This document shows positions 13,040 to 28,578 of a stretch of DNA of 36,321 nucleotides, one piece after another; position 1 is the stretch's first letter; each line of letters begins with the position of its first letter. The notes below the pieces were generated by a model. That model did not search any database. It saw only the letters and a program-made list of their open reading frames with translations, and had not been told where the DNA came from. The position numbers and the translations under genes were made by a program. The DNA is from an uncultured Clostridia bacterium. Lineage in GTDB: Bacteria; Bacillota_I; Bacilli_A; RF39; UBA660. The DNA is taken from assembly GCA_946533175.1 (NCBI GenBank), contig CAMNBS010000002.1, positions 1 through 36,321 of the forward strand, given 5' to 3'.

Positions 13040-13214
13040 GATATTATGTTGCTATATGTCCAGGAAACTATATTATAAACTTTGATGTTGCAATAATTAA
13101 TCCCTAATAAATGAATTAAAATTTGACGGAATTGTACTAAATTTCGTCTTTTTTATGCTATAATTAGATAGAAATGGAGTGATTCCTATGAATAATAAAA
13201 CTAATATTAACTGG
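13040..13214 (+). repeat. rbgA upstream/5'-end module, copy A
   Basis: Hairpin terminator GACGGAATT-N6-AATTTCGTC + T-run (13125-13154). Extended -10 TGCTATAAT (13156-13164). RBS GGAGTGAT. ATG 13188 encodes MNNKTNINWWY* (to 13223). Core AAAACTAATATTAACTGG at 13197-13214. Visibly homologous along its length to copies B and E. Confidence 0.85.
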
Positions 13215-13492
13215 TGGTATTGATTTATCTAACCTCTTTAATAAATCATTATAAAATAAGGGAAATTTAAAAAATGGATCTTGCATATTTAATATAAAAA
13301 ATAATTAAAAATGTACAAAAAACACCAAAAATTATTAAAAATGGTGCTTTTTTCATACATTTTTAATTAGGTGATGTTTTCAGCTAACCCCATTGAAAAA
13401 TAAAGAAATTATTCATTCAAAACAAATAGGAAAATAAAGAAAAATATAGTATAATATAAGTAGTTGATAAATCATGGTAAAGGGGGAATTAT

Positions 13493-14368
13493 ATGAATGA
13501 TAAATTAACAACTATTACAAATCTTTTTGAAGGAAAAGAAATAAGAAGTGTATGGGATTCTGAAAAAGAAGAATATTATTTTAGTGTAGTAGATGTGATT
13601 AATGCTTTAGCAGAACCTAAGGATGCAAGCGATTACTGGACAACCTTAAAACGAAGAATGATTAAAGAAGAAAAAAGTGAGATTCCGACAAATTGTCGGG
13701 AACTGAAAATGAAATCTTCTAAAGATGGTAAAATGTATAAAACTGATACTCTTGATACTGAAGGAATATTTAGATTGATTGAATCTGTTCCATCTAGTAA
13801 AGCTGAGCCTTTTAAGATGTGGTTAGCCTCCTTAGGAAAAGAAAGAATAGATGAGGTATTTGATCCAGAAATAGCAGTTAATAGGGCTGTAGAATATTAT
13901 CGTAAAAGAGGTTATGATGATAAATGGATTAAATCAAGACTAACTGGAATAGTTGATAGATTTAAATTAACTGATGTTTGGAAAGAATCAGGGATTACAA
14001 AAGACTATGAGTATGGAATTTTAACTAATGAAATTTATAAATCATGGTCAGGAATGAAAGCAAGTGAGTATAAAGCATATAAAGGTCTTAGAAAAGAATC
14101 TTTAAGAGATAATATGACAGATATTGAAGTAGCATTAACTGACTTAGGAGAAATAGCAACAAGAGAACTTGCTAAAGAACATAAACCATTTGGATTAGAA
14201 CAAAATAAAAGAATAGCGCAACGTGGAGGAAATATAGCTAAAATAACTAGAGATAATTTAGAAAAAGAGTTAGGTAGAACTGTCATCAGCAATAAGAATT
14301 CGTTAAATTATGAATATATAGATGAAAAATTATTAGAAGATAAAAAAGAGGTTGTAAGTAATGAATAA
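13493..14368 (+). CDS. Bro-N domain protein (phage/ICE antirepressor-like, DinD-like architecture)
   Basis: RBS AAGGGGG. N-terminus ITNLFEGKEIRSVWDSEKEEYYFSVVDVINAL matches the Bro-N pattern. The helical C-terminal half is as in Bro/KilA-type proteins of Firmicutes mobile elements. Confidence 0.7.
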   Translation: MNDKLTTITNLFEGKEIRSVWDSEKEEYYFSVVDVINALAEPKDASDYWTTLKRRMIKEEKSEIPTNCRELKMKSSKDGKMYKTDTLDTEGIFRLIESVPSSKAEPFKMWLASLGKERIDEVFDPEIAVNRAVEYYRKRGYDDKWIKSRLTGIVDRFKLTDVWKESGITKDYEYGILTNEIYKSWSGMKASEYKAYKGLRKESLRDNMTDIEVALTDLGEIATRELAKEHKPFGLEQNKRIAQRGGNIAKITRDNLEKELGRTVISNKNSLNYEYIDEKLLEDKKEVVSNE

Positions 14369-14415
14369 GTATAATATTAATGAATTAAGAGAACAAATTG
14401 GATAGATGTAAAAAT

Positions 14416-14628
14416 ATGGATTTAAAAGATGTTAGTCTTGATGATGTTGATGAAATATCTTCTATAAAAATTGATAAGAGAAAATCTAGTAATGAAAGAA
14501 TTTTAGATTTTTTGTCTAAAACTAAAAATCCATATATATTTAAGGTTAATAATAGATTAGTTAAAATCAGTTTTTCTGATAATAATAGAACAGGTGATGA
14601 TGCATTAACTAGTGTACTTAAGAATTAA
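14416..14628 (+). CDS. small DUF6870-like protein (typical cargo of Firmicutes integrative/conjugative elements), possibly frameshifted at its 5' end
   Basis: KNPYIFKVNNRLVKISFSD motif. No RBS before ATG 14416. A 14-codon ORF (14361-14405, MNKYNINELREQIG*) in another frame looks like the displaced original N-terminus. Confidence 0.4.
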   Translation: MDLKDVSLDDVDEISSIKIDKRKSSNERILDFLSKTKNPYIFKVNNRLVKISFSDNNRTGDDALTSVLKN

Positions 14629-14788
14629 TATAGATAAGGATGTAATGAGTAAAAATGAACTAAAAACACCTAAAATCATTAAAATAGGGACTTTTTTTTA
14701 TATTTTTGATGAGGTGATGTTTTCAACTAACCCCACCATAAAATAAGAGATTATGATAATTAAAATTATTTTAGAATAAAGTGATTTT

Positions 14789-14817
14789 TTGACACAATTG
14801 TTGGAAAGTGTTATAAT
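14789..14817 (+). promoter_or_regulatory. sigma-A promoter of the T-box/valS unit
   Basis: TTGACA (14789-14794), 17-nt spacer, TGTTATAAT with TATAAT at 14812-14817. Confidence 0.65.
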
Positions 14818-14829
14818 TTTTTCGTATTC

Positions 14830-15057
14830 AAAAAACGAGGAACAAGAGGAGTAGAATAGTTAGTAGCTATTAGGAATGAAAGGTCACCGACTGAAAGCCT
14901 TTCTTAGTGAAGAGTATTTGAAGGTAGCTTGGGAGTTGTATATCTGAAATAGTAGTAAGATATAATGTTAGTCGCATTAAGACTTCAAGGTAATAGAAAT
15001 ATTACAAATTAAGGTGGTACCACGAGCAATTCGTCCTTTATGGATGAGTTGCTTTTT
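14830..15057 (+). promoter_or_regulatory. T-box riboswitch leader, specifier most likely GUA (Val)
   Basis: Stem I with AGTA/GAA loop-E elements. Specifier loop TTGAAG-GTA-G, then CTTG pairing with CAAG (14843-14846). T-box sequence AATTAAGGTGGTACCACG at 15007-15024. Terminator GCAATTCGTCC-N5-GGATGAGTTGC + T6 (15025-15057), mutually exclusive with the antiterminator. Confidence 0.8.
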
Positions 15058-15165
15058 TAATTATTTAGGAGATGATTAATATGAAATTTATTTTTAAAGG
15101 TGATTATGTACGAGTCTAATTATTTTAATCGATTATAATTTTTAAAATAAGAAGGAGAGATTAAA

Positions 15166-17583
15166 ATGTTAGATAAAAAATATAATGCAAATGAAAAAGA
15201 AAATAAATGGTTAAATTATTGGAAAGATAATGGAATATATGATTTCAAACCAGATTACAGAGAAGTATATTCAATAGATACTCCTCCTCCAACAGTTAAT
15301 GGTAAGATTCATATAGGACATATATTTTCATATACGCAAACAGAAATGATTGCTAGATATAAAAGATTAAGTGGGTATAATGTATTCTATCCATTTGGTT
15401 TTGATGATAATGGATTACCTTCAGAAAGATTAGTTGAAAAAGAACAAGGTAAGAAAGCTCATGAAATTGGAAGAGAAGAATTTTCTAAATTATGTCATGA
15501 AACAACTGATAAATATGAAAGTGAATTTCAAGAATTGTTTAGTAAAATGGGTGTAAGTACTGATTGGAAATATCATTATAAAACAGTTAGTCCATCAACT
15601 ATTAAGATAAGTCAAAAATCATTCTTAGATTTAATTGATAAAGGACATTGTTATCATAAAGAATCACCAGCATTATGGTGCAATGAATGTTTAACTTCAA
15701 TAGCACAAGCTGAACTTGAAACAAAAACAATAAAAACAACATTTAACTATATTAATTTTAAAACTAAAGAAGATGGTGAAGAGTTTACTATAGCTACAAC
15801 AAGGCCCGAATTGTTACCAGCTATTGTATGTGTATTTGTAAATCCAAGTGATGAAGCACACAAGTCTTTAATTGGAAAAACTGCCCATATTCCAGTAATA
15901 GATGTTGAAGTTCCTATTATGGCAGATGAGAAGGTTGCTATCGATAAAGGTACCGGAGTAGTTATGTGTTGTACTTTCGGAGATCAAACAGATATTGAAT
16001 GGTGGAAGAAGTATAATTTACCACTTAAATATATATTTACTGATGATGGTAAAATTATTGATTCAGTTCCTAACTATGGTGGAATGAAAATCAAAGAAGC
16101 AAGAAAACAAATAATTGAAGACTTACAAGCTGGTGGTTATGTAGTTAAGATTGAAGAATTAGAGCATGAAGTTCAAACACATGAAAGATGTGGTAAAGAA
16201 GTTGAATATGCAGTTATGAAACAATGGTTTATTGATATCATGAATCATAAACAAGATTTCATTAAAATTGGTAATGAAATCAAATGGTATCCAGAACATA
16301 TGCATAATAGATATAATGAATGGGTTGAAAATGTTTTATGGGATTGGTGTATATCAAGACAAAGATATTTTGGCGTTCCATTCCCAGTTTGGTATTGCAA
16401 AAATTGTGGAGAACCAATTTTTGCAAATGAGAAAGATTTACCAGTTAATCCATTAATAGATAAATCTAAGAATGATAAATGTCCAAAATGTGGATGTACT
16501 GAATTTATTCCAGAAACAGATGTAATGGATACTTGGGCAACTTCTTCAGTAACACCATTAATTAATATGAGATATGGTGAAGAAGATAATTTTGAATCAA
16601 TTTTAAAACCAATGAGTTTAAGAACTAATGCTTCTGAAATTATTAGAACATGGGACTTTTATACAATAGTTAAGAGTTTCTATCATTTTGGAACTAGACC
16701 TTGGGATAATGTAATGATATCAGGATTTGTTATGGCTAACAAAGGAGAAAAAATAAGTAAGTCTAAAGGTAATAGTAAAGTAGATCCAATGGATCTTATT
16801 AATGAGTATTCAGCTGATGTATTAAGATATTGGGCTGGTACTGGAAGATTAGGTACCGATATCGTATTTAGTGATGAAACATTATTAAGAGGTAAGAAGT
16901 TAGTTAATAAGATTTGGAATGTTTCTAAATTTATTGAAATGCATTTACAAGATTATGAAGATAAAGAATTTAATGATTTTGAATATATTGATAAATGGAT
17001 ACTTGGTAAATATCAAGAAATGGAAAGAGGGTTCATTAAATATTTAGATGATTATGAAGTAGGATTAGCATTAAACTTACTCGAAAAGTTCTTCTGGAAC
17101 TTCTGTGATAATTATATTGAAATTGTTAAACATAGACTATATAGACCTGAAGAATTTGGAGATACTCCAAGATACTCAGGGCAAAAAACAGTTTATACTA
17201 TTCTTTATAAATTATTACAAGACTTTAGTATTTACTTCCCATATATAACTGAAGAAATTTATCAAGAATTATATCACGATAATAAATCAATTCATATAAC
17301 AGAAATTAAACCATTAAATTATAGTTTTGATAATGAAATTAAATGTGGTGATTTAATAATAGATATTATCAGTCAAGCTAGAGGAGAAAAATCAAATAAT
17401 AATTTATCTTTAAAGACACCAATTAAGAATTTAGATTTAAGTTTAAATAGTGAACTTAAAGAAGCAATTAATAAATCTATTAAAGATATTAAAGCAACAT
17501 TATTTATTAAGAATTTAAATATAAATGATATTGATAAAGATTATACTATAGATAAAATTGAGTTGGATTTAAGTGAAGAATAG
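15166..17583 (+). CDS. valS: valine--tRNA ligase, short (type-2, archaeal/actinobacterial-like) form
   Basis: RBS GAAGGAGAG. TPPPTVNGKIHIGHIFSYT (HIGH), FGFDDNGLPSE, CP1 editing region, KISKSKGN (KMSKS). 805 aa with no long C-terminal coiled coil. Confidence 0.8.
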   Translation: MLDKKYNANEKENKWLNYWKDNGIYDFKPDYREVYSIDTPPPTVNGKIHIGHIFSYTQTEMIARYKRLSGYNVFYPFGFDDNGLPSERLVEKEQGKKAHEIGREEFSKLCHETTDKYESEFQELFSKMGVSTDWKYHYKTVSPSTIKISQKSFLDLIDKGHCYHKESPALWCNECLTSIAQAELETKTIKTTFNYINFKTKEDGEEFTIATTRPELLPAIVCVFVNPSDEAHKSLIGKTAHIPVIDVEVPIMADEKVAIDKGTGVVMCCTFGDQTDIEWWKKYNLPLKYIFTDDGKIIDSVPNYGGMKIKEARKQIIEDLQAGGYVVKIEELEHEVQTHERCGKEVEYAVMKQWFIDIMNHKQDFIKIGNEIKWYPEHMHNRYNEWVENVLWDWCISRQRYFGVPFPVWYCKNCGEPIFANEKDLPVNPLIDKSKNDKCPKCGCTEFIPETDVMDTWATSSVTPLINMRYGEEDNFESILKPMSLRTNASEIIRTWDFYTIVKSFYHFGTRPWDNVMISGFVMANKGEKISKSKGNSKVDPMDLINEYSADVLRYWAGTGRLGTDIVFSDETLLRGKKLVNKIWNVSKFIEMHLQDYEDKEFNDFEYIDKWILGKYQEMERGFIKYLDDYEVGLALNLLEKFFWNFCDNYIEIVKHRLYRPEEFGDTPRYSGQKTVYTILYKLLQDFSIYFPYITEEIYQELYHDNKSIHITEIKPLNYSFDNEIKCGDLIIDIISQARGEKSNNNLSLKTPIKNLDLSLNSELKEAINKSIKDIKATLFIKNLNINDIDKDYTIDKIELDLSEE

Positions 17584-17618
17584 AATGGTCAGAATATTGA
17601 TTTGTTGCAAACTTACAA

Positions 17619-17642
17619 GTAGGAGAAATCCTACTTTTTTGA
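17619..17642 (+). terminator. intrinsic terminator after valS
   Basis: AGTAGGA-GAAA-TCCTACT followed by T6. Confidence 0.7.
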
Positions 17643-17906
17643 TATAATAATGGGAAGTATCATTTCTTTTATCGATATGGTATTAGTGATAATGGTGAAA
17701 AAACACTTAGCAATTTAGAAATTGCAAAGCTCGATGATATAGTTAGAATAAATCATATTGATAAATGGAATGGATATAATTCTCAAAACAAAGAAACTCC
17801 TAATGATGGGTTTATAATTCATATTGAATATATGGATGGAAAAAAGACAACATTTGATATTTATATTAGAAGAGATAAATATACAATAAAAGAAAAGAAT
17901 AATTAA
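17643..17906 (+). pseudogene. startless 3' gene fragment (unknown family)
   Basis: 87-codon open frame (..YRYGISDNGEKTLSNLEIAKLDDIVRINHIDKWNGYNSQNKETPNDGFIIHIEYMDGKKTTFDIYIRRDKYTIKEKNN*). It begins right after a TGA and has no start codon or RBS. Confidence 0.3.
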
Positions 17907-17918
17907 TCGCACTATTAT

Positions 17919-18095
17919 GATATTACGATTGATCATATGACCAGGAAATTATAATAAAACATTTGATGTTACAACATCTAACCCAACTTAAATAAATTAA
18001 AAATTGACGGAATTATACTAAATTTCGTCTTTTTTATGCTATAATTGATTAGAAACGGAGTGATTCCTATGGATAATAAAACTAATATAAACTGG
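17919..18095 (+). repeat. rbgA upstream/5'-end module, copy B
   Basis: Terminator hairpin 18006-18035. TGCTATAAT with TATAAT at 18040-18045. RBS GGAGTGAT. ATG 18069 encodes MDNKTNINWLRTI* (to 18110). Core AAAACTAATATAAACTGG at 18078-18095. Confidence 0.85.
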
Positions 18096-18295
18096 TTGAG
18101 AACAATTTAGTCAAGATCGACTCCAAAACCTTATAAAATAAGTGAAAAACAAAAAATAAATCATACATGTTTTATAATAAAATATATTAAAATAGATAAA
18201 AAATAATAAAAATTAAGTGATTTTAAGTAAAAATAGCTTAGGAATTGACATGGTGAGAACAGGTAGTCAAGACCAGATGAAAGAAGATGATAATT

Positions 18296-19052
18296 ATGGC
18301 AAATAATTTAGTAATTAGAAGCAGTAGTGCAGAATTTTTGATATTTGAAAGACAAACCCATGATAAGGGAATTCAAGTTAGATTTGAAAATGGAGATTTA
18401 TGGTTAACTCAAAAAGCTATGAGTGAATTATATGATTGTACAGCAGACAATGTTTCATTACATTTAAAAAATATATACAAAGACTATGAACTTTACAAAA
18501 ACTCAACTACCGAGGAATTCTCGGTAGTTCAAAAAGAAGGTAACAGAGAAGTAAGCGGTGGATTATGATTCAAAGGCACCAACAACAATTAAATTTTTTA
18601 AAAAAGTACAAAACAAAATGCATTATACTGTATCTCATCAAACTGCAGCTGAAATAATATATAATCGTGCTGATTCAAAAAAAGATAATATGGGGCTTAC
18701 CTCATGGAAGAATTCTCCTAATGGAAAAATTTTAGAAACTGATGTTGTAATTGCTAAAAATTATTTATCTAAAAATGAATTAGAAAGTTTAGAAAGAATA
18801 GTTTCGGCATTTTTAGATTTAGCAGAGAATAGGGCAAAGAGAAATATTCCAATGACAATGGAAGATTGGGCGACAAGAATTGATAAATATTTACTTGCTG
18901 ATGATTTAGATATATTAAAAGATGCTGGTAAAATATCTCATGAAATAGCGTGCGACAAAGCATTAACTGAATTTGAAAAATATAGAGTAAAACAAGATAA
19001 ATTATATAAATCAGATTTTGATTTATTAATGGAAGAAAGTGAAAAAATATGA
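18296..19052 (+). pseudogene. RhuM-family (virulence RhuM / Fic-associated) gene, split by internal deletion and frameshift
   Basis: The N-part (to 18568) has RFENGDLWLTQKAMSELYDCTADNVSLHLKNIY and FSVVQKEGNREV. The C-part (18558-19052) has FFKKVQNKMHYTVSHQTAAEIIY. Together about 250 aa in two frames, with the central segment of intact RhuM proteins missing. Confidence 0.65.
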
Positions 19053-19402
19053 AAATAAAATCATTATATATATGCGTTGATGATATGCAAAGGGCGATAA
19101 ATTTCTATACAGATTTCTTTGAGAAGAGTCCTATAAAAAATGATTCTATTTATTCTGTATTTGATATTGATGGTTTTAGATTTGGTTTATTTGCATATAA
19201 AAAAATGAAAGAGCCACATACTTTTGGAAGTAATTGTTTGCCTAGTATAGAAGTAGATAGTATAGAAACACTAAAAAGAAAAATAGAAAAGCTAGAGATT
19301 TGTTTTCCTTTAACTAAAATTGAAAGTAATTATGTAGTTGAATTTATTGATAGTGAAGGAAATCATATAGAATTAACAACCCCTATAAAAGGAAGTGATT
19401 AA
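19049..19402 (+). CDS. VOC (glyoxalase/bleomycin-resistance) family protein
   Basis: Start overlaps the RhuM stop (ATGA). Single beta-alpha-beta-beta-beta module pattern: LYICVDDMQRAINFY...FGLF...GNHIELTTP. Confidence 0.6.
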   Translation: MKIKSLYICVDDMQRAINFYTDFFEKSPIKNDSIYSVFDIDGFRFGLFAYKKMKEPHTFGSNCLPSIEVDSIETLKRKIEKLEICFPLTKIESNYVVEFIDSEGNHIELTTPIKGSD

Positions 19403-19464
19403 AATGAAAGAAGAAAAAGTGTCTTTAAACAAGCTAAAGATATTGAACAAATTATGAATAAATT

Positions 19465-19508
19465 AGGGAGGTAATACTCATGGATGAAAATAAAACTAAT
19501 ATAAACTG
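19465..19508 (+). repeat. rbgA 5'-end module, copy C (short)
   Basis: RBS GGGAGG. ATG 19480 encodes MDENKTNINCLVWI* (to 19524). Core AAAACTAATATAAACTG at 19492-19508. No terminator or -10 part. Confidence 0.75.
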
Positions 19509-19717
19509 TTTGGTATGGATTTAGTCAAACATTTTTATAAAACCCTATAAAATCAAGGGAAAATGAATGTTTACTTATTACATTTTTTTATTAAAAAAAG
19601 TAAAAAAAAACTAAAATTTGATAAAATTCGGTAAAAATCATCCAAAAATAGCAATATTTAAAAAGGGTGGTATTGACGGTCTAACTTTTAGAAAAAAGAG
19701 TGTTTTTATATAAATTT

Positions 19718-19744
19718 GTCAGATAGTTATATCTGACTTTTTTT
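19718..19744 (+). terminator. strong hairpin + T7 just upstream of the ParB-like gene
   Basis: GTCAGATA-GTTA-TATCTGAC followed by TTTTTTT. The context CTTTTTTTATGC resembles the terminator/-10 junction of the rbgA modules. Confidence 0.6.
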
Positions 19745-19766
19745 ATGCAAAAATTTAGGAGGATTT

Positions 19767-20141
19767 ATGAAAGAAGAGGTAATAGAAATTGATGTAAAAG
19801 ATATTAAAAAATTTCCAAATCATCCTTTTAAAATTACTAATGATCTTAATTATGAAGAATTAAGAAATAGCATTATGGAAAGTGGTGTATTAGTTCCTGC
19901 AATTGTTAGAAAGAGAGATGATGGAAAATATGAAATGTTATCTGGACATAGAAGAATGCAAATATGCAAAGAACAAGGAATAAAGAAAATTCCATGCATA
20001 GTTAAAAATATTTCAGATGAGGAAGCTATTGTCTTGATGGTAGATTCTAATCTTCAAAGAGAAAAAATATTACCAAGTGAAAAAGCAATGGCATATAAGA
20101 TGAAATATGATGCAATAAAATCTATGACACCATCGGTGTAA
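19767..20141 (+). pseudogene. ParB N-terminal-domain (ParB/Srx) protein, 3'-truncated
   Basis: RBS AGGAGG. PNHPFKI..., GVLVPAIVRK...YEMLSGHRRMQICKEQG, and VDSNLQREKILPSEKAMAYK are typical of ParB-like proteins of clostridial integrative elements. The HTH part (..[15 protein letters not shown]) continues only in another frame (about 20143-20213). Confidence 0.6.
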
Positions 20142-20223
20142 GATAAAAGAAAAGATGAAATATTAGGAGAGCAAGTTGGAGAAAGTAGAGAGCAAATAAG
20201 AAGATTTAGAAAATAATAATATA

Positions 20224-20790
20224 AGACCAGAAAGTTTAGATGAATATATTGGCCAAAGTGAAGTAAAAGAAAACATTAAAGTATTTATAGAAGCTGCAAA
20301 GCTTAGAAATGAACCACTTGATCATGTACTTTTATATGGTCCACCAGGACTTGGTAAAACAACTTTAGCAAATATAATAGCAAATGAATTAGGTGTTTCT
20401 TTAAAAACAGCATCGGGTCCTGCTATAGAAAAATCTGGCGATTTGGCAGCAATATTATCAACATTAGAACCAGGTGATGTATTATTTATTGATGAAATAC
20501 ATAGAATGCCAAGATTTATTGAAGAAATACTTTATCCTGCTATGGTAGATTTTACTTTAGATATAGTAGTTGGAAATGATACAAATACAAGAAGTATTAA
20601 AATTGATTTGCCTCCATTTACTTTAGTTGGAGCTACAACAAGAGCAGGTGATTTGACAAGTCCACTTCGTGATAGATTTGGTATTACTTGTAAATTAAAA
20701 TATTATGATGAAGATGAACTTCGTATGATTATTGAAAGAACAAGTCGTGTTCTTGATATGCCTATTTCTCATGAAGCAGCGATTTCACTT
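20224..20790 (+). pseudogene. ruvB: ruvB fragment (about residues 20-215 of Holliday junction helicase RuvB)
   Basis: [57 protein letters not shown]...[30 protein letters not shown]...[14 protein letters not shown]......[29 protein letters not shown]. The C-terminal third is absent. Boundaries approximate. Confidence 0.8.
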
Positions 20791-21694
20791 GCTAATTTAT
20801 TAAAACAAAAAGATTATAGTATAAAAGCTTTTCATATGAATTCTAAAGAATATTTTTCAAGAGGAATTAATTATTCTAATTGGGGATATGATAATTATTT
20901 TGGACTTCAGGATTTAGGAATATATTCTGATACATCATATCAGTTGGATAGAGAACTTATTCTTAATGAAACATTCTACAATGAAATGTTTAATAATAAT
21001 GGAAAATTTATGAATTACATTATTACTTATAGTAATCATTTACCTTTTGATGCTAAAAGAGGAGTATGTAATAAATTATTAAAACTTGATTATGAAAAAG
21101 AACTTTAAAATATTGATAATAGTGAAAAAAATGTATTTCTAGAGAGTTTAGAATTAACAGAAGAAGATTGTATTAAGAGACAAGCAAAAGAGACTGATTA
21201 TATGATATGGTTATTAATAAAAGCATTAAAAGATAATAATTTATATGATAATACAATAATTATTGCTTATGCTGATCATTATTTATATACTGTATCTGAT
21301 TATGAAATACTAAAAAAATGGTAAGAGTATAGAAACTAATTTAATTAATCATACACCATTCTTTATATGGAGTAAAAATTTAAAAAAGGAAGAAGTAAAA
21401 AAAGTTACAACACAAATGAATATTTTACCAACTGTTTTAAATTTACTTGGAATAGAATATAATGAAAAATGGTATATAGGGCAAGATATATTTTCAAAAA
21501 AAATTAAACCATTTGTAGTATTCCCTGATTTATCTTGGTATGATGGAAGTTATTATGTAGAAGATGGTAGTGTTGTTAATAATAAGAAAATATCTTCTGA
21601 ACTTTTAGAAGAAAAAAATAATTATGCTGAATATTTAATTAAAAAGAATGATTTAGTACTTAAATATAATTATTTTAAAGAAATGAGTAATTAA
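20791..21694 (+). pseudogene. LtaS-type sulfatase-domain gene, 5'-truncated, with an in-frame stop and a frameshift
   Basis: Fused in frame to the ruvB fragment at about 20785-20795 ([17 protein letters not shown]...ITYSNHLPF). TAA at 21106. Continues ..LYDNTIIIAYADHY.. to a frameshift in the A7 run near 21314. Then ..NHTPFFIWS...QMNILPTVLNLLGIEYN.. to 21694. Confidence 0.7.
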
Positions 21695-21775
21695 AAGACT
21701 TTGTTATAGGTAAAAAAAAGTCTTTCTTTTTGTGCGAATGTAATATATAATTATAATAGGTAGGAGGAGTGTTAA

Positions 21776-24568
21776 ATGATGGATGCAACTAAAAAAAGAA
21801 AATTAATAGTAAGTATTTTAGGAATAGTGGGAGTATTAAGTATTACACTAGGTGTTACTGTAGCATTCTTTAATTATACAAGAACAGGAAATGCTAATAC
21901 AATAAGTGTAGGAAGAATAGCTTTTAATTCAACTCAAGATGGAAGAATAAATTTAACAAATATATTTCCAATAGATAGTGAAGATATTGATAATGCTTTA
22001 GAAGAAGGAAATAACGTAACAATTAATATTAATGGGGATACAACATATCAATATGGAATAGAATATTTAGTTACAGCAGAAGATGTTAACATTACTGTTA
22101 ATAATAAAAAGGTACCATTAAATCTATATATAACAAGTACAACTGATTTAGGTAATAATGATCCTGATTATTTTGATAATCGTGGTGGAAATATGTCAAT
22201 GCATAAAGTTTTATCGGGAGGAGTTGTAGTAGATGGACAATATTTAGTTGTTGGTTATATTGCACCAGGACAAGAGGGAATAGAAGGAAATTTAAATATA
22301 AAGGCATATATTGATAAAGATAAAATAGCAATAACAGATACACCGGAAGAAAATATAGAATGGCAAAGAGGTAGAACTATATTTACAACGGAAGAATGGA
22401 ATAGTATTCAACAAGAAGGTCATGAATTATCCTTTAAAATAAGAGTAGAAGCGAATGAAGGAGTTTGGGTAGATCCATATACAACACCAAATTTAATGAA
22501 TAATATTAATATAAATAAAAGTGCAGTAAATATAAAAGAAATAAGGTTTATAGAAGAAACACCACTTAGAATGCAAAGAAGGTATGATGCTTCTGTTGGT
22601 GAAGAAAGTAATGGAACAAAAGCTGATTTAACATATCAAGATACTGGAAAAGTACTTGCATGGATAGAGCCGATGGAAGTAACCCCAACAGGAACAAGTA
22701 ATGAATTATTAAATATCAAACCAAAGTTTTTAGTTAATGAAGACACATCAAATAATCTTAAACAAATAGATAATGAACCTGCATATATATTATATATAGC
22801 AAGTAGTGGTAAGACAAAGTGGGTAACAGGCAATTCTTTATTTAAAGAATTCACAAGTGTGGAAAAAATCATATTTGAAAATGTTGATTCATCAAGTGTT
22901 ACTAGTATGTATGATATGTTTAATAATTGTAACAAGTTAAGAAGTATAATTGGATTAAATACATTAGATACAAGTAATGTTACAGATATGCAATATATGT
23001 TTTCAGGTTGTAGTAGCTTGACAAGTATTGATTTATCAGGATTAGGAAGCAATAATTTAAATGCTATAGGTTATATGTTTTATAATTGCAATGCTCTAAC
23101 TGAAATAATAATGAAAAATTTTAATTTTGGTCAAGTTAATTTTTATAATAATAGTAATTATTATTATGCATTTGCATATCTTCCAAATGTGGAAACAATA
23201 GATTTAACAAATGCCAATACTAGTGGTGTTACTAGCATGTATGATATGTTTTATAGTTGCACAAAATTAAAAAATATCATCGGTTTAAATACATTAGATA
23301 TAAGTAATGTTACAGATATGCGGTATATGTTTGCATATAGCGAAATAGAAAGTATTAATTTAAGTGGAATGAATATGAGTAGTGTAACTACTGTATATGA
23401 CATGTTTTACAGTTGTAAATCATTAGCATTAGTTAAGATAAATAACGCTAATTTACAAAATGTAACAGATATGCAATATATGTTCTCTGACTGTGATGCG
23501 CTTGTAAGTATTGATTTAAATAATTTAAATATTAATAGTGTACAAACAATGAATAGCATGTTTAGTGGATGTGATAATTTGGAAAGTGTTATATTTACTG
23601 GAATAGAAACAACAACATTAAGGGATATGTCAAATATGTTTTCTGGTTGTACGAAATTAATAAATGTAAATTTATCAGGATTAGGAGGAAACAATTTATA
23701 TAGTGTTGGTTATATGTTTTATAATTGTACTAGTTTAAAAAATATAAATATGTCTAATTTTAATTTTGGTGGAATTAATTCATTTGATGGTTCTTCAAGT
23801 ATTTTTTACCCATTAAAAGGTGTATTGGAAAGTATTAATTTAAGTGGAGCAAATTTTAGTGGACCTAATATATCATCTAGTAGTTTTTATGCAATGTTTC
23901 AATATTTTTCAAAATTAAAGACTGTTGATTTAAGTAATGCAAACACAAGTAAAGTAACAAGTATGCAAGACCTATTTGGTCATTGTCCATTATTAGAAAA
24001 TGTTAATTTAGCTGGAATCGATACGAGTAATGTGACAAACATGCAGTATATGTTTGATAATTGTGATTCTATAACAAAACTAGATTTAAAACATTTAAAT
24101 ACAAGTAAAGTAACTAATATGTATTATATGTTTAGATATATGGACAATTTAGAAGAAATTGATATATCTGGGTGGGGAAATAATAGTTTATCTAATACAT
24201 ATGGTATGTTTGCTTCTGATATTAAATTAAAAACTATAATTATGAATAATTTTAACTTTGGAACAAGCGCATATGGGGCATTTTATAGTGCGAGTGGCGT
24301 TGAAGAAGTTTATCTAAGTAATGCTATAACAAACAAAGTGACTGATATGAGTCTTATGTTTGATGGTTGTAGAAACTTAAAAACAATATATGTATCAAAT
24401 ACATGGGATACAACTAAAGTAACGGATTCAGGTAGTATGTTTTCTAATTGTACATCTTTAGTAGGTGGAGCAGGAACTACCTTTAATGCTAGCTATATTG
24501 ACAAAACAAGAGCAATCATTGATGGTGGTACAAGTAATCCCGGTTACTTAACATTAAAGACAAATTAA
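21776..24568 (+). CDS. BspA-family leucine-rich-repeat surface protein (DUF285 / Mycoplasma-type LRR) with TasA-like N-module
   Basis: RBS AGGAGG. TM, then AFFNYTRTGNANTISVGRIAF. More than 15 repeats of the DUF285 pattern (..VT.M..MF..C..L..I.L....T..). C-terminal SLVGGAGTTFNASYIDKTRAIIDGGTSNPGYLT signature. Confidence 0.85.
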   Translation: MMDATKKRKLIVSILGIVGVLSITLGVTVAFFNYTRTGNANTISVGRIAFNSTQDGRINLTNIFPIDSEDIDNALEEGNNVTININGDTTYQYGIEYLVTAEDVNITVNNKKVPLNLYITSTTDLGNNDPDYFDNRGGNMSMHKVLSGGVVVDGQYLVVGYIAPGQEGIEGNLNIKAYIDKDKIAITDTPEENIEWQRGRTIFTTEEWNSIQQEGHELSFKIRVEANEGVWVDPYTTPNLMNNININKSAVNIKEIRFIEETPLRMQRRYDASVGEESNGTKADLTYQDTGKVLAWIEPMEVTPTGTSNELLNIKPKFLVNEDTSNNLKQIDNEPAYILYIASSGKTKWVTGNSLFKEFTSVEKIIFENVDSSSVTSMYDMFNNCNKLRSIIGLNTLDTSNVTDMQYMFSGCSSLTSIDLSGLGSNNLNAIGYMFYNCNALTEIIMKNFNFGQVNFYNNSNYYYAFAYLPNVETIDLTNANTSGVTSMYDMFYSCTKLKNIIGLNTLDISNVTDMRYMFAYSEIESINLSGMNMSSVTTVYDMFYSCKSLALVKINNANLQNVTDMQYMFSDCDALVSIDLNNLNINSVQTMNSMFSGCDNLESVIFTGIETTTLRDMSNMFSGCTKLINVNLSGLGGNNLYSVGYMFYNCTSLKNINMSNFNFGGINSFDGSSSIFYPLKGVLESINLSGANFSGPNISSSSFYAMFQYFSKLKTVDLSNANTSKVTSMQDLFGHCPLLENVNLAGIDTSNVTNMQYMFDNCDSITKLDLKHLNTSKVTNMYYMFRYMDNLEEIDISGWGNNSLSNTYGMFASDIKLKTIIMNNFNFGTSAYGAFYSASGVEEVYLSNAITNKVTDMSLMFDGCRNLKTIYVSNTWDTTKVTDSGSMFSNCTSLVGGAGTTFNASYIDKTRAIIDGGTSNPGYLTLKTN

Positions 24569-24649
24569 AAAAATTGTGTATAATAAACACAATTTTTTTA
24601 TATCTTTTTTTCTCTATTATATTATCATTAGTATGAAAGGGATTGTAGT

Positions 24650-26083
24650 ATGAGTAGTTTTTTTAATTCTCTAATTAAAACTATTGGTAGTTGGTATAAT
24701 AGTGGTTCTAGTATTCTATGGTGGGTATACCATATACTTGCCATTTTAGGTATATATAAAACTTTTTATTTAATAATTGGTATCTTTTTTACAAGAATAT
24801 TTCCTAAAGCTAAAAATAATCATAAATATGCTATTGTAATTGCAACAAGAAATGAAGAAAAAGTTATTGGAAATTTATTGGATAGTATTAATAAACAAGA
24901 TTATCCAAAAGATTTAATTACTACTTTTGTCATTTGTGATAATTGTACTGATAATACAAAAAAGGTTAGTGAAAAGCATGGTGCTATATGTTATAAAAGA
25001 CATGATTTAAAGAATAAAACAAAGGGGTTTGCTTTAAAATATTTATTTGAGTGTATAGAGCGTGACTATAAAATTAATAGTTTCGAAGGATACTTTGTTT
25101 TTGATGCTGGTGAAAAGATAATTACATCATATCGTAATACTAAAAATTTTGATGAGAATTGGATTGCATCAACTTACGCAATTCATTGGCTTAGAAGCAT
25201 TAGAACAGCGCATCGTGCTAGAAGTATTTTAAGACTTGCTACTAATATTCAAGGAACTGGTTTTTTATTTAGTAATGAACTTGTAAAAAATGGTTGGAAA
25301 TATACTTCATTAACAGAAGATAGAGCATTTACTGTTGATGCTGTTAAAGAGGGATACCATATTTCTTATAATGATAAAGCTATGTTTTATGATGAACAAC
25401 CTGTTAATTTGAAAATAGCATTACGCCAGCGTCTTCTTTGGTCTAATGGTCATTTACAGGCATTCATTGAAACAGGACTAGGTTTATTTAAAAATATTTT
25501 TTTTGGTAAGATGTTTCGTAAAAATAAACAAAATGTTAAAAGTGGTTTTTTATTAAAAATAATCGAATCAATACGACATCGTTTTGCATCGTTTGATATA
25601 TTAATGCTTATGCTACCAAGTAGTGTTATTTATTTTCTTTTATGGTTTATCTTTTCATGTTTATTATATAGTAATAATGCCTATATCGTTGGTATTAATG
25701 GTGTTAATATTTTCCAGGGTGGAACAATACTAGCAGGTTTACTTCGAAGTATAACAGATATATATGTTTATGTAAGTCCAGGTATTGAATCTTTGTTTAT
25801 GGGATTTATTTTAACAATATGGTTACGTATTTTTTATTTAATAGGAAGATATATTGAAAATATGTGGATGGCTATTTATATTTTCTTTGTTGAACATAAA
25901 AGAATAAAAAAGAATGATTCATGGATTGAGCATTTTAAAAGAAATAAAAAAATAAAAAAAATAACCAAAGAAGTTTTGCAAGAATTAATTGATGTTATTT
26001 ATATAACAAACGAAGGTAATGTAGAAATTACATTTAAATATAAAAATTTATATGAAGATGCTCTGAGGTATCTAAATAATTAA
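24650..26083 (+). CDS. family-2 glycosyltransferase (membrane, processive-type), probably inactive, with a chimeric 3' end derived from a large serine recombinase
   Basis: GT2 motifs YAIVIATRNEE, FVICDNCTD, TSYRN.KNF, GTGF, LTEDR and the Q(R)RLLW-type motif QRLLWSNG. The expected FDAD(N) DxD reads FDAGEKIITSYRN, suggesting an in-frame deletion of about 20 aa. The last ~55 aa resemble a DUF4368-type recombinase tail. Confidence 0.6.
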   Translation: MSSFFNSLIKTIGSWYNSGSSILWWVYHILAILGIYKTFYLIIGIFFTRIFPKAKNNHKYAIVIATRNEEKVIGNLLDSINKQDYPKDLITTFVICDNCTDNTKKVSEKHGAICYKRHDLKNKTKGFALKYLFECIERDYKINSFEGYFVFDAGEKIITSYRNTKNFDENWIASTYAIHWLRSIRTAHRARSILRLATNIQGTGFLFSNELVKNGWKYTSLTEDRAFTVDAVKEGYHISYNDKAMFYDEQPVNLKIALRQRLLWSNGHLQAFIETGLGLFKNIFFGKMFRKNKQNVKSGFLLKIIESIRHRFASFDILMLMLPSSVIYFLLWFIFSCLLYSNNAYIVGINGVNIFQGGTILAGLLRSITDIYVYVSPGIESLFMGFILTIWLRIFYLIGRYIENMWMAIYIFFVEHKRIKKNDSWIEHFKRNKKIKKITKEVLQELIDVIYITNEGNVEITFKYKNLYEDALRYLNN

Positions 26084-26090
26084 AATTTTG

Positions 26091-26187
26091 TGTTATAATT
26101 GATAAGTAAAGTTTCTTACAAAAAGGAGTGATTCTTATGAGTAATACAAATGGAAATGCTGGGCTAGACAAAACCAATATCAACTGG
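26091..26187 (+). repeat. rbgA 5'-end module, copy D
   Basis: TGTTATAAT with TATAAT at 26094-26099. RBS AAAGGAGTGAT. ATG 26137 encodes MSNTNGNAGLDKTNINWLITVYSNFWRNPLFIRTCED* (to 26250). Core AAAACCAATATCAACTGG at 26170-26187. Confidence 0.8.
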
Positions 26188-26385
26188 TTGATTACAGTTT
26201 ATAGTAACTTTTGGAGAAATCCTTTATTTATAAGAACTTGCGAAGATTAATGTCTTACATGCTTACAATAAAAAATATTAAAAATTAATAAAAAATAGTC
26301 AAAAATGACTAAAATATCCTAAAAATAGCGTAGGAATTAAAGTATTGATTACGGGACAGTAACTCACAGTAAAAGAGGTGAAATT

Positions 26386-26724
26386 ATGAAACATGAAATG
26401 AAATTAAATAATGGACCATACACAAATATAAAAAATGGTACAAAAACAATTGAGTTAAGATTAAATGATGAAAAGAGACAATTATTAAAGATAAAAGATT
26501 TAATTGAATTTACTAATAGAGAAACTTTAGAACAAATGTTAGTTGAAATTGAAAATTTATATCATTATCCATCTTTTGAAGAACTGTATAAACATTTTGA
26601 TAAGGTGGCTATGGGATATAAAAATAACGAAATTGCTAATCCAAAAGATATGGAAGAATACTATTCAAAAGATGAACAAGAAAAATATGGTGTATTAGGA
26701 ATAGAGATAAAAAAAATAAAATAG
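26386..26724 (+). CDS. ASCH (PUA-like) domain protein
   Basis: RBS AGAGGTG. MKLNNGPYTNIKNGTKTIELRLNDEKRQLLKIKDLIEF...YHYPSFEELY...YYSKDEQEKYGVLGIEI matches the small stand-alone ASCH family pattern. Confidence 0.6.
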   Translation: MKHEMKLNNGPYTNIKNGTKTIELRLNDEKRQLLKIKDLIEFTNRETLEQMLVEIENLYHYPSFEELYKHFDKVAMGYKNNEIANPKDMEEYYSKDEQEKYGVLGIEIKKIK

Positions 26725-26774
26725 TAAGTACAGTTTTAATACTATAATTATGTATTGATTTAAAGGAGGTTTTG

Positions 26775-27554
26775 ATGATGATATTTTTAAGTCATAATTA
26801 TAAAGATAAGGATATAGTCGAACCAATTGCTATAAAATTGAAAGAAATATATGGTCAAGAAAATATTTTTTATGATTCTTGGTCAATTAAACCAGGTGAA
26901 AGTATAATTGGAAAAATGGATGAAGGCCTTTCCAAGTGTAAATGGTTTTTCTTCTTTATTAGTAATAATTCATTAAATAGTTCTATGGTGGGGTTGGAAT
27001 GGCAAAGTGCTTTATATAAAGCCACAAAAGAAGGAATAAAATTTGTACCAATAAAAATTGATGATTGTTTTCCGCCACAAATATTGACTAATACTTTATA
27101 TTTGGATATGTATGTGGATGGTTTTGATAACACTTTAAGAAACATGTTTGACTTGATTGATAATAATGATACCAAAGAATATAATAAAAAATTTAATAAC
27201 TTGTTATGTAGTATCGAAAGAATCAATAATAAAGAATTAAAAATAAAGATTGAGGTTTTAAAATTAATTGAACCAAATCCAAGCTTTGCTTTTGCTTTTA
27301 GTAATAGTTTAGATGATGTTTCCATAGAATTAACATCTGATTCTATGTCTATGAATAGTTCTGGAACATTTTCAAACGGTAAAAATCTTAAATTGTGTAG
27401 GATTAGTAGGGTACTTACTAAGGGATTCCCGTATGAAGTAATTTTAAAAAGTAAAGTTGGTTTTAAAAATAATGATTTGGAAATATGGCATCAAGTTGGA
27501 AAAAACGATTTTGTTTTGCTAACTAATATAAACGAGTATAGTTCAATAAACTAG
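26775..27554 (+). CDS. TIR-domain protein with an uncharacterised beta-rich C-terminal domain
   Basis: RBS AAGGAGG at 26763-26769. IFLSHNYKDKDIVEPIAIKL...IFYDSWSIKPGESI...CKWFFFFISNNSLNSSMVGLEWQSAL is the TIR_2 pattern, including the conserved Glu. The ~130-aa C-terminal half has no motif I recognise. Confidence 0.75.
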   Translation: MMIFLSHNYKDKDIVEPIAIKLKEIYGQENIFYDSWSIKPGESIIGKMDEGLSKCKWFFFFISNNSLNSSMVGLEWQSALYKATKEGIKFVPIKIDDCFPPQILTNTLYLDMYVDGFDNTLRNMFDLIDNNDTKEYNKKFNNLLCSIERINNKELKIKIEVLKLIEPNPSFAFAFSNSLDDVSIELTSDSMSMNSSGTFSNGKNLKLCRISRVLTKGFPYEVILKSKVGFKNNDLEIWHQVGKNDFVLLTNINEYSSIN

Positions 27555-27563
27555 TTTATTCTA

Positions 27564-27756
27564 CATTAGAATGAGATATTATAGCCATATGACCTGGAAA
27601 CTATAGACTAAATTTGATTACGGTTTTTAGTAACCATTAAAATGACTTAAAAATGGACGAAAATATACTAAATTTCGTCTTTTTTATGGTATAATTTTAT
27701 TGATTTATATGAAAGGAGTGATCCAAATGAACGAAAATAAAACTAATATAAACTGG
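27564..27756 (+). promoter_or_regulatory. rbgA upstream/5'-end module, copy E (the functional one): terminator, extended -10 promoter, RBS, start
   Basis: Hairpin GACGAAA..TTTCGTC + T-run (27656-27685). TGGTATAAT with TATAAT at 27690-27695. RBS GGAGTGAT. ATG 27727. Core AAAACTAATATAAACTGG at 27739-27756. Confidence 0.8.
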
Positions 27757-28578
27757 TATCCTGGCCATATGGCTAAGACCAAGAGAGAAATTAAAGAAAA
27801 GTTGGCATTAATTGACATAGTATATGAAATAATTGATTCACGAATGCCAAAGTCAAGTAGAATTATAGATTTAGATGAATTGATTAATGATAAACCAAGA
27901 ATAATGATTTTTACGAAATATGATTTATGTGATAAAAGTATTACTGATAAATATGTTAATGAATATCAAAAAAAATATATTGTTATAAAAACTAATTTAA
28001 AAGAAAATAGTAATATTAATAAATTAATTCTTGATAAAACAGAAGAAATATTAAAAAGCATTAATGAAAAAAGATTGGAAAAAGGACTTAATAAAAGAAA
28101 TTATAGAGCTTTAGTAATTGGAGTTCCTAATGTTGGTAAAAGCACTTTAATTAATCGTTTAGCAGAACGTAATGTTGCTAAAACGGGTAATGTAGCTGGA
28201 GTTACTAAAAACTTGTCATGGATAAAGCTTAATAAGAATATAGAACTTTTGGATACACCAGGTATATTGTGGCCAAAAATAGAAGATGAAATAGTTGGTT
28301 TAAATCTTGCTTCTTTATCAAGTATTAAAGAAGAAATTTTAAATAAAGAGGATATATCAATGTATATAATTAGGACATTATATAATTATTATCCAAAGTT
28401 ATTATTAGATAAATATAAAATAGATAATATTGATGATTTTAATATTGTTTTTGATAGTATTGGAAAAAGAAGAGGTTGTCTTGAAAAAGGTGGTGTTGTA
28501 AATTTGGATAAAGTTTATACCATTATTATAAATGACTTAAAAGAAGGTAAGATTGGTAAAATAACCTTTGATAGATAA
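27727..28578 (+). CDS. rbgA: ribosome biogenesis GTPase A (YlqF/RbgA)
   Basis: INWYPGHMAKTKREIKEKL..ID.V.EI.DSRMP.SSR, circularly permuted G motifs (TKYDL then GVPNVGKSTLIN, DTPG). ATG 27727 preferred over the ORF-track start at 27700. Confidence 0.92.
   Translation: MNENKTNINWYPGHMAKTKREIKEKLALIDIVYEIIDSRMPKSSRIIDLDELINDKPRIMIFTKYDLCDKSITDKYVNEYQKKYIVIKTNLKENSNINKLILDKTEEILKSINEKRLEKGLNKRNYRALVIGVPNVGKSTLINRLAERNVAKTGNVAGVTKNLSWIKLNKNIELLDTPGILWPKIEDEIVGLNLASLSSIKEEILNKEDISMYIIRTLYNYYPKLLLDKYKIDNIDDFNIVFDSIGKRRGCLEKGGVVNLDKVYTIIINDLKEGKIGKITFDR

Follow-up and report, generated by a model that had tools for sequence, protein, structure and literature searches.

Adjacent ASCH and TIR genes at the 5' end of rbgA in a low-GC Bacilli genome: probably unrelated neighbours at a mobile-element landing site

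In the stretch of DNA analysed here (36,321 nt, hereafter the window) a gene for an ASCH (PUA-like) protein and a gene for a TIR protein stand side by side, the latter directly upstream of rbgA/ylqF, in the order ASCH, TIR, rbgA and all on the + strand. On balance we favour the view that the two are unrelated neighbours brought together at a mobile-element landing site: they would be functionally unconnected accessory genes that share the final unit of a series of decayed integrative elements arrayed at the rbgA 5' end. Judged by its likeness to known TIR proteins, the likeliest role of the TIR protein is that of a standalone defence protein combining sensor and NADase, and its gene alone is a plausible candidate anti-phage gene. 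A preliminary description of this DNA had proposed that the two genes form a portable defence module. As a new two-gene immune system the pair appears to be a false lead, and cloning it as a unit would be misdirected. The features of the locus are:

13054-26169, +: remaining accretion array, in which 13197, 18078 and 19492 mark the earlier rbgA 5' copies
26091-26099, +: TGTTATAAT, extended -10 box of an rbgA promoter copy that has diverged; it lines up with the TGnTATAAT seen in the genuine promoter and its other copies
26137-26250, +: 37-aa remnant ORF in which a duplicated rbgA 5' coding end runs into the left-end leader of the element (junction alignment)
26170-26188, +: rbgA 5' core copy 4, AAAACCAATATCAACTGGT, the left boundary of the interval ('core D' of the preliminary description); junction ..CTGGT/TG..
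26189-26385, +: left-end leader of about 200 bp, conserved after each core, including the palindrome TAGTCAAAAATGACTA
26386-26724, +: ASCH (PUA-like) gene of 112 aa that forms a single-gene unit by itself (Pfam ASCH above cut-off; match to PH0355)
26725-26777, +: ASCH-TIR spacer of 50-53 bp with TATAAT at 26743-26748 and the RBS AAAGGAGG at 26762-26769; a degenerate rbgA promoter/RBS module and unit junction
26778-27554, +: TIR plus beta-sandwich gene, 258 aa, or 259 aa from the ATG at 26775 (Pfam TIR_2, AF2 models, Foldseek, family alignment); TIR domain about 26778-27160, Glu codon 26997-26999, beta-sandwich about 27201-27542
27586-27602, +: CCATATGACCTGGAAAC, inverted copy of the rbgA stretch ATCCTGGCCATATGG (27758-27772), from unit-end alignment
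27656-27685, +: terminator-like hairpin 3' of the TIR gene, GACGAAA..TTTCGTC followed by T6 (RNAfold -10.1 kcal/mol)
27687-27695, +: TGGTATAAT, extended -10 box of the rbgA promoter, kept in all promoter copies
27727-28578, +: rbgA/ylqF, the integration target (TIGR03596, 319 bits against a cut-off of 208); core copy 5 is 27739-27757

The rbgA promoter and the first 31 nt of the gene are duplicated five times within the window, where 0.01 core copies would be expected, and junction alignment and profile match place the last 5' copy in frame with an intact YlqF. These duplications are a Tn5253-type integration footprint. Streptococcal ICEs use the rbgA 5' end as integration site, with Tn5253-type elements inserting just after the N-W-[FY]-P-G-H-M codons and the gene being rebuilt from the element's own copy (PMC8571831, PMC4701971). 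Like Tn5253/Tn5252-type ICEs and IMEs, the array shows insertion directly after the first conserved rbgA codons and a duplicated att that takes in the upstream promoter region and restores the coding sequence. However, it consists of five tandem copies with units down to 1.4-1.6 kb, and its host is a 26.5% GC gut-type Bacilli lineage and not a streptococcus. The rbgA 5' site known from streptococcal ICEs is thus also used in low-GC gut Bacilli, where it gathers small integrase-less units, each behind a copy of the rbgA promoter.

That the two genes occupy a discrete interval in a mobile-element hot spot had already been recognised, and the interval is indeed a repeat-bounded unit among the five rbgA 5' cores. 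Its leader is about 70-75% identical to the stretches that follow the cores at 13216, 18097 and 19511, and likewise to positions 1-220 and 1100-1290 of the related locus L094, while the alignment of units in the window and in L094 showed that CCATATGACCTGGAAAC is kept at the right end of each unit. The cargo of the remaining array comprises Bro-N, a T-box with LeuRS, a split RhuM, a glyoxalase-like gene and ParB_N, as well as chimeric remnants, a 930-aa repeat protein and a GT2 gene. The T-box at 14829-15041 was the sole match of the Rfam scan, which gave none inside the ASCH/TIR interval, and a tRNA search found no tRNA genes. No integrase or recombinase domain was detected when window ORFs of at least 90 aa, covering 121-28578, were compared with Pfam, nor were integrase, relaxase or conjugation genes found in the window. 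Since no integrase is left in the window, the units are remnants that could be moved in trans at best. We liken them to CIMEs, which we take to be integrase-less, att-flanked remnants left here by the accretion of rbgA-targeting elements. The junction motif had no exact match in IMG/VR.

Three candidate mobility features were discarded. The end of ORF 24650-26083 carries a DUF4368 tail that stays below threshold as a sign of a mobilising recombinase (19 bits against 25), the serine recombinase adjoining the ASCH gene in L004 has no counterpart in the window, and a 13-nt core-like match in the 3' end of the TIR gene (27521-27533) is not a junction, as it encodes the family-conserved C-terminus L(T/N)NI.E.

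The gene arrangement given in the preliminary description was reproduced: a 112-aa ASCH protein and a 258/259-aa TIR protein are encoded about 50 bp apart. A pattern scan detected no terminator-like site in the spacer, the best fold of which reaches only -4.3 kcal/mol. The RBS ends 8 nt before the TIR start at 26778, the ATG that is also called in other assemblies. Since the genes are close together on the same strand and no terminator lies between them, they are probably co-transcribed here. The cassette had also been called promoter-equipped, which was not borne out in that form. A consensus promoter scan of 25900-27900 returned 16 sites against 16.6 expected for DNA of 26.5% GC, nothing above chance, and did not single out the extended -10 box at 26091-26099; this TGnTATAAT copy and the TATAAT in the spacer were picked out by eye. 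Judging from the promoter alignment, TGTTATAAT is likely to be the promoter of the remnant ORF, ASCH and TIR. Both genes would probably be transcribed from rbgA promoter copies. The terminator-like hairpin behind the TIR gene recurs at 13109-13172 and 17990-18053; the pattern scan did not report it, possibly due to its loop of about 10 nt, as the scan was limited to 8.

The ASCH protein is small and PUA-like, of a kind common in low-GC gut Bacilli, and belongs to a very large family. Its gene is well beyond chance, with more than 2,039 homologues; in the assembly collection, 1,692 indexed blocks contain one and the same protein of 89% identity. The earlier domain call was borne out (Pfam ASCH PF04266, 29.2 bits against a cut-off of 21.2), and DUF3850 also scores above its cut-off (23.8 against 22.9 bits). 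Over its full length the protein matches Pyrococcus PH0355 (2Z0T; 8e-9, residues 1-111) and PF0455 (1S04), which likewise consist of a single ASCH domain of about 110 aa and whose structures are deposited as uncharacterised or hypothetical proteins only. E. coli YqfB is a more distant ASCH/PUA-like comparison than these two. Since no YqfB-type chain is among the PDB matches at E <= 1, N4-acetylcytidine amidohydrolase activity is not to be assumed. Its probable function is to bind or to hydrolyse a modification of nucleosides or nucleic acids.

For the TIR protein, the earlier domain assignment was likewise upheld by Pfam (TIR_2, PF13676, 72.8 bits against a cut-off of 28, residues 3-119). Its homologues form 64 clusters with E-values down to 3e-167, again well beyond chance, and tblastn found homologues of neither this gene nor the ASCH gene in phage genomes. 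The conserved Glu noted before is E75 (..GLEWQ..), which is invariant in 23 aligned family members. Its counterpart in AbTir (..WTNYE) and Cat1 (..WCWDE) is the W..E-motif Glu, presumably the catalytic residue of these proteins. By the criterion of this conserved Glu, the TIR protein is predicted to be catalytically competent and of NADase type.

The C-terminal region had been described as a beta-rich domain of unrecognised type. Residues 143-256 are indeed all-beta in the full-length AF2 model (pLDDT 85.9), and the domain modelled alone reached a pLDDT of 91.7 and a pTM of 0.84. Foldseek aligned the whole protein best with AbTir (7uxu; E 2.7e-6, target-normalised TM-score 0.79). The isolated beta-sandwich gave no match at E <= 1e-3; in the PDB it resembles at best generic folds (cohesin-like, YcnI; E >= 1.9e-3, TM <= 0.53). 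A profile of the sandwich matched 233 of 1.84 billion representatives, nearly all of which share this architecture at a length of about 255-275 aa or are fragments. The beta-sandwich of about 115 aa is therefore exclusive to this TIR family and has no specific structural relative.

The TIR plus beta-sandwich family comprises about 230 clusters at 50% identity from Bacillota, Bacteroidota, Pseudomonadota, Spirochaetota and an archaeon, and it is also found on 8-kb Bacillus plasmids. In GTDB, 147 genomes carry it. We compared its neighbourhoods across 80 genome loci at species level, taking in flanks of up to 6 kb at each locus. No conserved neighbour emerged, the commonest (SLFN_AlbA_2/HATPase_c_4) being present in 5 loci. 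The genes right next to it include restriction-modification genes of types I, II and III as well as DrmD, AbiD, IetS, SMODS and integrases, from which a defence-island setting was judged by eye on the neighbour lists. Close relatives vary in the same way. An 86%-identical TIR occupies the same slot before rbgA behind a PP2C-like gene in place of ASCH, a 73%-identical one stands alone beside Mrr and SLFN_AlbA_2 genes, a 62%-identical one lies between AAA_14/DUF4143 and DUF3644, followed by TnpV, and 81%-identical ones occur in two further contexts. The 117-aa gene upstream of an 81%-identical TIR in L180 was considered as a possible ASCH gene and rejected, the match being of low complexity (28%).

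The TIR protein shares TIR_2, the conserved Glu and the status of a single gene with no fixed partner with the standalone TIR NADases (AbTir, BtpA/TcpB and PdTIR type). AbTir and BtpA have N-terminal coiled-coil or other regions, whereas here the TIR domain is N-terminal and the beta-sandwich follows. An N-terminal TIR with a C-terminal regulatory domain, joined in a single chain of about 260 aa, is also the layout of Cat1 (TIR-CARF), TIR-SAVED, TIR-STING and SPARTA TIR-APAZ, but the C-terminal domain here is an all-beta sandwich and none of CARF, SAVED, STING or APAZ; CRISPR, CBASS or pAgo genes were not found near the TIR gene. Cat1 (263 aa) is the best PDB match of the family profile (1.8e-10, TIR domain only) and ranks second, behind a TPR protein, when the single protein is the query. 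Foldseek alignments with SPARTA are good over the TIR part only, with an overall rmsd of 13-23 A. In agreement with the preliminary description, the pairing of ASCH and TIR fits no described system, as PADLOC and NCBIfam match the TIR domain only: the PADLOC matches to PDC-S66, TIR-NLR and retron RT-TIR cover the TIR part of the profiles and not the full architecture, and for NCBIfam Retron_TIR the score is 42 bits where 600 are required. Like the TIR protein, Thoeris ThsB combines a catalytic Glu with an extra domain that could sense phage, and Thoeris occurs in similar defence-island-like settings; unlike Thoeris, this family has no conserved adjacent effector across the 80 genomes.

A different reading would make ASCH and TIR one Thoeris-type system, in which TIR makes a nucleotide signal and ASCH is the effector, or in which ASCH senses modified nucleic acid and triggers TIR. 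The short, terminator-free spacing on one strand and the great diversity of known Thoeris effectors speak for such a system, as does the finding of the intact pair, at 99.7% nucleotide identity, in two other samples, the only further occurrences. However, these samples represent the same locus in the same species and are therefore not independent. None of the 80 TIR loci contains ASCH (tblastn nothing below E 0.28, up to 6 kb of flank each) and none of 82 ASCH loci contains TIR (tblastn nothing at E <= 1), which, together with the ASCH-free surroundings of the nearest TIR relatives in five other contexts at 62-86% identity, contradicts a portable two-gene module. The preliminary description had itself named a lack of co-occurrence elsewhere as an argument against the pair, and likewise ASCH homologues beside unrelated genes, and such genes are what we found: a GNAT acetyltransferase in 23 of the 82 loci, UDG-like genes, and housekeeping genes such as MurI and ProRS. 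Of the 49 loci with enough flank, 9 have rbgA no more than 3 kb downstream, and ASCH is often upstream of rbgA without any TIR. Furthermore, homology at the DNA level is gene-sized and breaks in the spacer. The ASCH unit (about 26371-26770) is 87-89% identical to loci with this gene only, whereas the TIR unit extends from 26758 or 26778 to at most 27553, homology to L094 starting at 26758. What comes after ASCH in L097, L107 and L096 is the unit-end module or else an rbgA 5' copy, and no TIR; in the last two of these loci the ASCH 3' flank seen here leads into ATG plus AAAACTAATAT.. of the rbgA 5' copy. ASCH is hence a unit by itself in the same kind of array. It has no PADLOC match, ASCH or PUA domains are not mentioned among the 29 effector types of a 2025 Thoeris survey, and a literature search found no paper linking ASCH and TIR in a defence system. 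We regard a joint Thoeris-type system as very improbable, and give as little credence to a modulation of TIR by ASCH in this lineage.

The TIR protein could also be an orphan ThsB-like signal generator, its effector being encoded elsewhere in the genome or by a lineage-specific neighbour such as ASCH, the PP2C-like gene, DUF3644 or SLFN_AlbA_2. This would agree with weak PADLOC matches to ThsB (3e-4, 0.006 and 0.015, all over the TIR core), with the short distance to a neighbour in a few loci (6 bp in L019 and L020, 12 bp in L176 and 20 bp, to the PP2C-like gene, in L094), and with the same survey, in which TIR clusters associate with several effector types. Yet in that survey a substantial fraction of each TIR cluster has an effector in common, and TIRs lacking a multigene operon counted as standalone proteins and were taken out of the search; here no neighbour family exceeds the 5 of 80 loci, and SIR2, SLOG and Macro are not among the recurrent neighbours. 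As already noted in the preliminary description, no ThsA-like partner was seen either in what was covered of these 36 kb of genome: SIR2, SLOG and Macro are missing from the Pfam-scanned ORFs (121-28578) and from the 25 PADLOC families listed for all 30 window ORFs, a listing beyond which 20 more families matched. The beta-sandwich is moreover fixed to this TIR, as expected of a built-in sensor. An orphan ThsB is thus quite unlikely. A role outside phage defence, as a TcpB/BtpA-like host-interaction protein, an NAD-metabolism protein or selfish cargo within decaying mobile-element debris, is suggested by the AbTir, BtpA/TcpB and PdTIR-type proteins among the best structure and sequence matches and by clear pseudogene remnants in the surrounding array. 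Against this, the chain opens directly with the TIR beta-A strand MIFLSH and shows no apparent secretion signal, the gene is intact in a family conserved at full length across phyla with an invariant Glu, and restriction-modification, Abi and integrase genes are frequent neighbours. We consider such a role unlikely.

For the favoured reading, a TIR protein functionally unconnected with ASCH, we propose that it works alone, with the C-terminal beta-sandwich as its built-in sensor. In response to a phage cue the TIR domains would assemble a composite active site, in which the conserved Glu, from what is known of the family, would hydrolyse or cyclise NAD+; protection of the abortive-infection type would be the result. 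The more specific idea, that the family is a self-contained single-protein anti-phage system whose sandwich directly recognises a phage protein and switches on the NADase, is put forward as a tentative possibility, somewhat short of probable. If true, the family belongs to the 'standalone TIR' class set aside by the Thoeris survey. With its compact length of about 258 aa and its solitary occurrence in several phyla, the TIR plus beta-sandwich protein would be a tractable candidate in which to study how standalone TIRs sense infection.

Among minor observations, one of three 'TIR_2' matches in upstream neighbours turned out to belong to a TIR gene that is split in L061, where it makes up the N-terminal half. 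The 37-aa remnant ORF is annotated as a gene in loci L092 and L093. The tight upstream gene in two lineages, ASCH here and PP2C-like in L094, loosely recalls the variable-effector pattern of Thoeris.

The two adjacent genes that the preliminary description had combined into a candidate portable two-gene defence module are present directly upstream of rbgA/ylqF:

26386-26724, + strand, ASCH gene, ORF of 112 aa
26775-27554, + strand, TIR gene, ORF of 259 aa from ATG 26775, or of 258 aa from ATG 26778

Since an RBS (AAAGGAGG) is located 8 nt before ATG 26778 and other assemblies have the same start, this is the more likely start of the TIR gene. The ASCH protein matches Pfam ASCH with 29.2 bits (cut-off 21.2) and aligns over its full length with the Pyrococcus structures PH0355 and PF0455, and the TIR protein matches TIR_2 with 72.8 bits (cut-off 28). 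No terminator-like hairpin was found in the spacer of 50-53 bp, either by terminator pattern scan or by RNA folding. Since ORFs, Pfam matches, models, spacer and the rbgA/ylqF neighbour all agree, the observation as such was correct.

One module of ASCH and TIR was supported by none of the comparative tests run: the two families are very unequal in size and occur in different contexts. A word-indexed search returned 64 clusters for TIR and more than 2,039 for ASCH, more than 100 of the latter with at least 86% identity to the query, and a single 89%-identical ASCH protein turns up in 1,692 indexed blocks of the assembly collection. Scanning one genome per GTDB species identified 147 members of the TIR family. 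When co-occurrence was checked, none of the 80 TIR loci fetched, with flanks of up to 6 kb, contained an ASCH homologue (best tblastn E 0.28), and none of 82 ASCH loci (67-92% identity) contained a TIR by tblastn, even at E ≤ 1. The sole other instances of the pair, L092 and L093, represent the same locus in two other samples of this species (99.7% nucleotide identity). DNA matches of ASCH loci to the window are confined to about 26371-26770, those of TIR loci start at 26758/26778 and reach 27553 at most. On its 3' side the ASCH gene is flanked by a degenerate rbgA promoter/RBS copy. In two loci (L096 and L107) this flank leads on to a duplicate of the rbgA start codon and core, in the window it leads on to the TIR ORF, and in another locus (L097) the ASCH gene is followed by a hairpin-plus-promoter module as found at unit ends. 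Due to this gene-sized DNA homology and the differing continuations of the ASCH 3' flank, ASCH and TIR are separate units joined in the spacer. It is very probable that they do not form a functional pair.

The neighbours of ASCH vary among the 82 loci and include GNAT and UDG-like genes, a collagen-like protein, MurI, ProRS and Tag glycosylase; these surroundings are not marked by defence genes. In 23 of the 82 loci, more than for any other neighbour, a GNAT acetyltransferase (~160 aa) is encoded directly upstream. ASCH is a frequent occupant of the rbgA-upstream region without any TIR, since in nine of the 49 loci with enough flank rbgA follows within 3 kb on the same strand, with differing intervening genes. 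The GNAT neighbour and the downstream rbgA hint that the function of ASCH is tied to acetylation or to the handling of nucleosides and that it has long resided near rbgA. ASCH would be a protein unrelated to TIR, acting on nucleosides or nucleic acids.

Among the 80 TIR loci no neighbour gene is conserved. The commonest, a SLFN_AlbA_2/HATPase_c_4 protein of ~450 aa, occurs in five of them (L012, L019, L020, L081 and L085), just 6 bp downstream of TIR in L019 and L020, and may represent a partnership specific to one subclade. Immediate neighbours are often restriction-modification systems of types I to III, DrmD, AbiD, IetS, SMODS or integrases. In the relatives at 86% identity (L094/L095) TIR is again the final gene before rbgA, with the gene for a 277-aa PP2C-like protein 20 bp upstream; those at 81% (L179 and L180) show two more arrangements. 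At 73% identity (L001) TIR stands alone with Mrr and SLFN_AlbA_2 genes nearby, and at 62% (L176) the order is AAA_14/DUF4143, TIR, DUF3644, TnpV.

As described before, the TIR protein contains the conserved Glu and a beta-rich, unrecognised C-terminal domain. Glu75 (..GLEWQ..) is invariant across the family alignment and corresponds to the W..E-motif Glu of the known TIR proteins AbTir and Cat1 when these are aligned. In the AlphaFold model an N-terminal TIR fold, with AbTir 7uxu as best Foldseek match (E 2.7e-6, target-normalised TM-score 0.79), is followed by an all-beta domain. Modelled in isolation (pLDDT 91.7), this domain had no PDB relative at E ≤ 1e-3 in Foldseek and resembled only generic cohesin-like or YcnI-like sandwiches. 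Its profile retrieved 233 proteins from 1.84 billion representatives, and since nearly all are fragments or proteins of ~255-275 aa in which the domain spans residues 137-257, the beta-sandwich is private to this TIR family. Family members were found in Bacillota, Bacteroidota, Pseudomonadota, Spirochaetota and one archaeon, and also on 8-kb Bacillus plasmids. PADLOC and NCBIfam matches are limited to the TIR core. In a recent systematic Thoeris survey, TIRs in standalone proteins without a multigene operon were removed, and ASCH or PUA domains are not mentioned. We propose that the TIR protein would act without a partner, with the beta-sandwich sensing a phage component and thereby causing TIR self-association, which would form a composite active site consuming NAD+. 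The reading of TIR as a standalone NADase defence gene is tentative, with close to an even chance.

Five occurrences of the 19-nt rbgA start (AAAACTAATATAAACTGGT) were counted in the window versus 0.01 expected by chance:

13197, core copy with upstream hairpin, T-run and TGnTATAAT promoter
18078, core copy with the same upstream elements
19492, core copy retaining only RBS and start codon
26170, core copy retaining only -10 box, RBS and start codon
27739, core copy with the same upstream elements as 13197

These tandem copies delimit four cargo intervals (13054-27757). Every internal copy breaks off after ..AACTGGT and gives way to a conserved leader of ~200 bp, as is also seen in L094, a related array from another species. 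The leaders are:

13216-13400, leader
18097-18262, leader
19511-19711, leader
26189-26385, leader
L094 1-220, leader
L094 1100-1290, leader

The leader contains the palindrome TAGTCAAAAATGACTA and ends with the RBS that serves the first cargo gene; it presumably represents the left end of these integrating elements. The break falls at the N-W-[FY]-P-G-H-M codons, which, going by the pneumococcal rbgA sequence, are probably those of the Tn5253-type site. Streptococcal elements of the Tn5253/Tn5252 type insert in the rbgA 5' end, where att duplication restores the CDS, the site being given by position only, after nucleotide 20 of the CDS (PMC8571831, PMC4701971). The duplicated site matches this streptococcal attB, here in a Bacilli-type genome with 26.5% GC throughout the window. 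No integrase was found among the window ORFs of at least 90 aa scanned against Pfam (121-28578) or by comparison with the serine recombinase of L004, and several ORFs of the cargo are chimeras or split. We interpret the array as integrative elements, now decayed, that accumulated by accretion, with the ASCH-TIR interval as its last unit, nearest rbgA. Copies of the rbgA promoter at 26091-26099 and possibly 26743-26748 would drive both genes. The proposed mobile-element hot spot is real, as is the gene pair; the proposed ASCH + TIR module is not supported. The remaining interest is modest and lies in a candidate standalone TIR family in an integration hot spot of a known type.

Each unit end bears CCATATGRCCAGGWAAC, at 27586-27602 an inverted copy of rbgA 27758-27772 just right of the crossover. 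It is located ~170 bp upstream of the crossover, also at the unit ends near 13060, 17940 and L094 2935, and may serve as an arm site for the integrase or belong to a folded att structure. The L094 array carries an EamA-like membrane protein and the PP2C-like protein (218-2121, 277 aa each). In the window, a Bro-N gene (13493-14368) matches the PADLOC candidate family PDC-S13 (2.7e-110); 75-bp direct repeats on both sides (13329-13403 and 14672-14746, 76% identical) make it look like a nested insertion. The stretch 14829-17583, also between the first two rbgA copies, comprises a T-box leader (105 bits to Rfam RF00230) and a complete leucyl-tRNA synthetase. The RhuM-family gene at 18287-19052 is split into overlapping ORFs of 93 and 164 aa, the second covering only positions 106-249 of the 252-position profile; it is probably a frameshifted pseudogene, and its two ORFs are the most likely source of the PADLOC PDC-S05 matches. 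Two chimeric ORFs, RuvB_N with a sulfatase fragment (20443-21108) and a GT2 glycosyltransferase whose C-terminus is a sub-threshold match to DUF4368, a serine-recombinase tail (24650-26083), would fit the decay of elements inserted earlier. In the third cargo interval a 930-aa protein (21776-24568) contains many DNA-level internal repeats (families D1-D3, D6 and D10), which by eye look like leucine-rich-type repeats.
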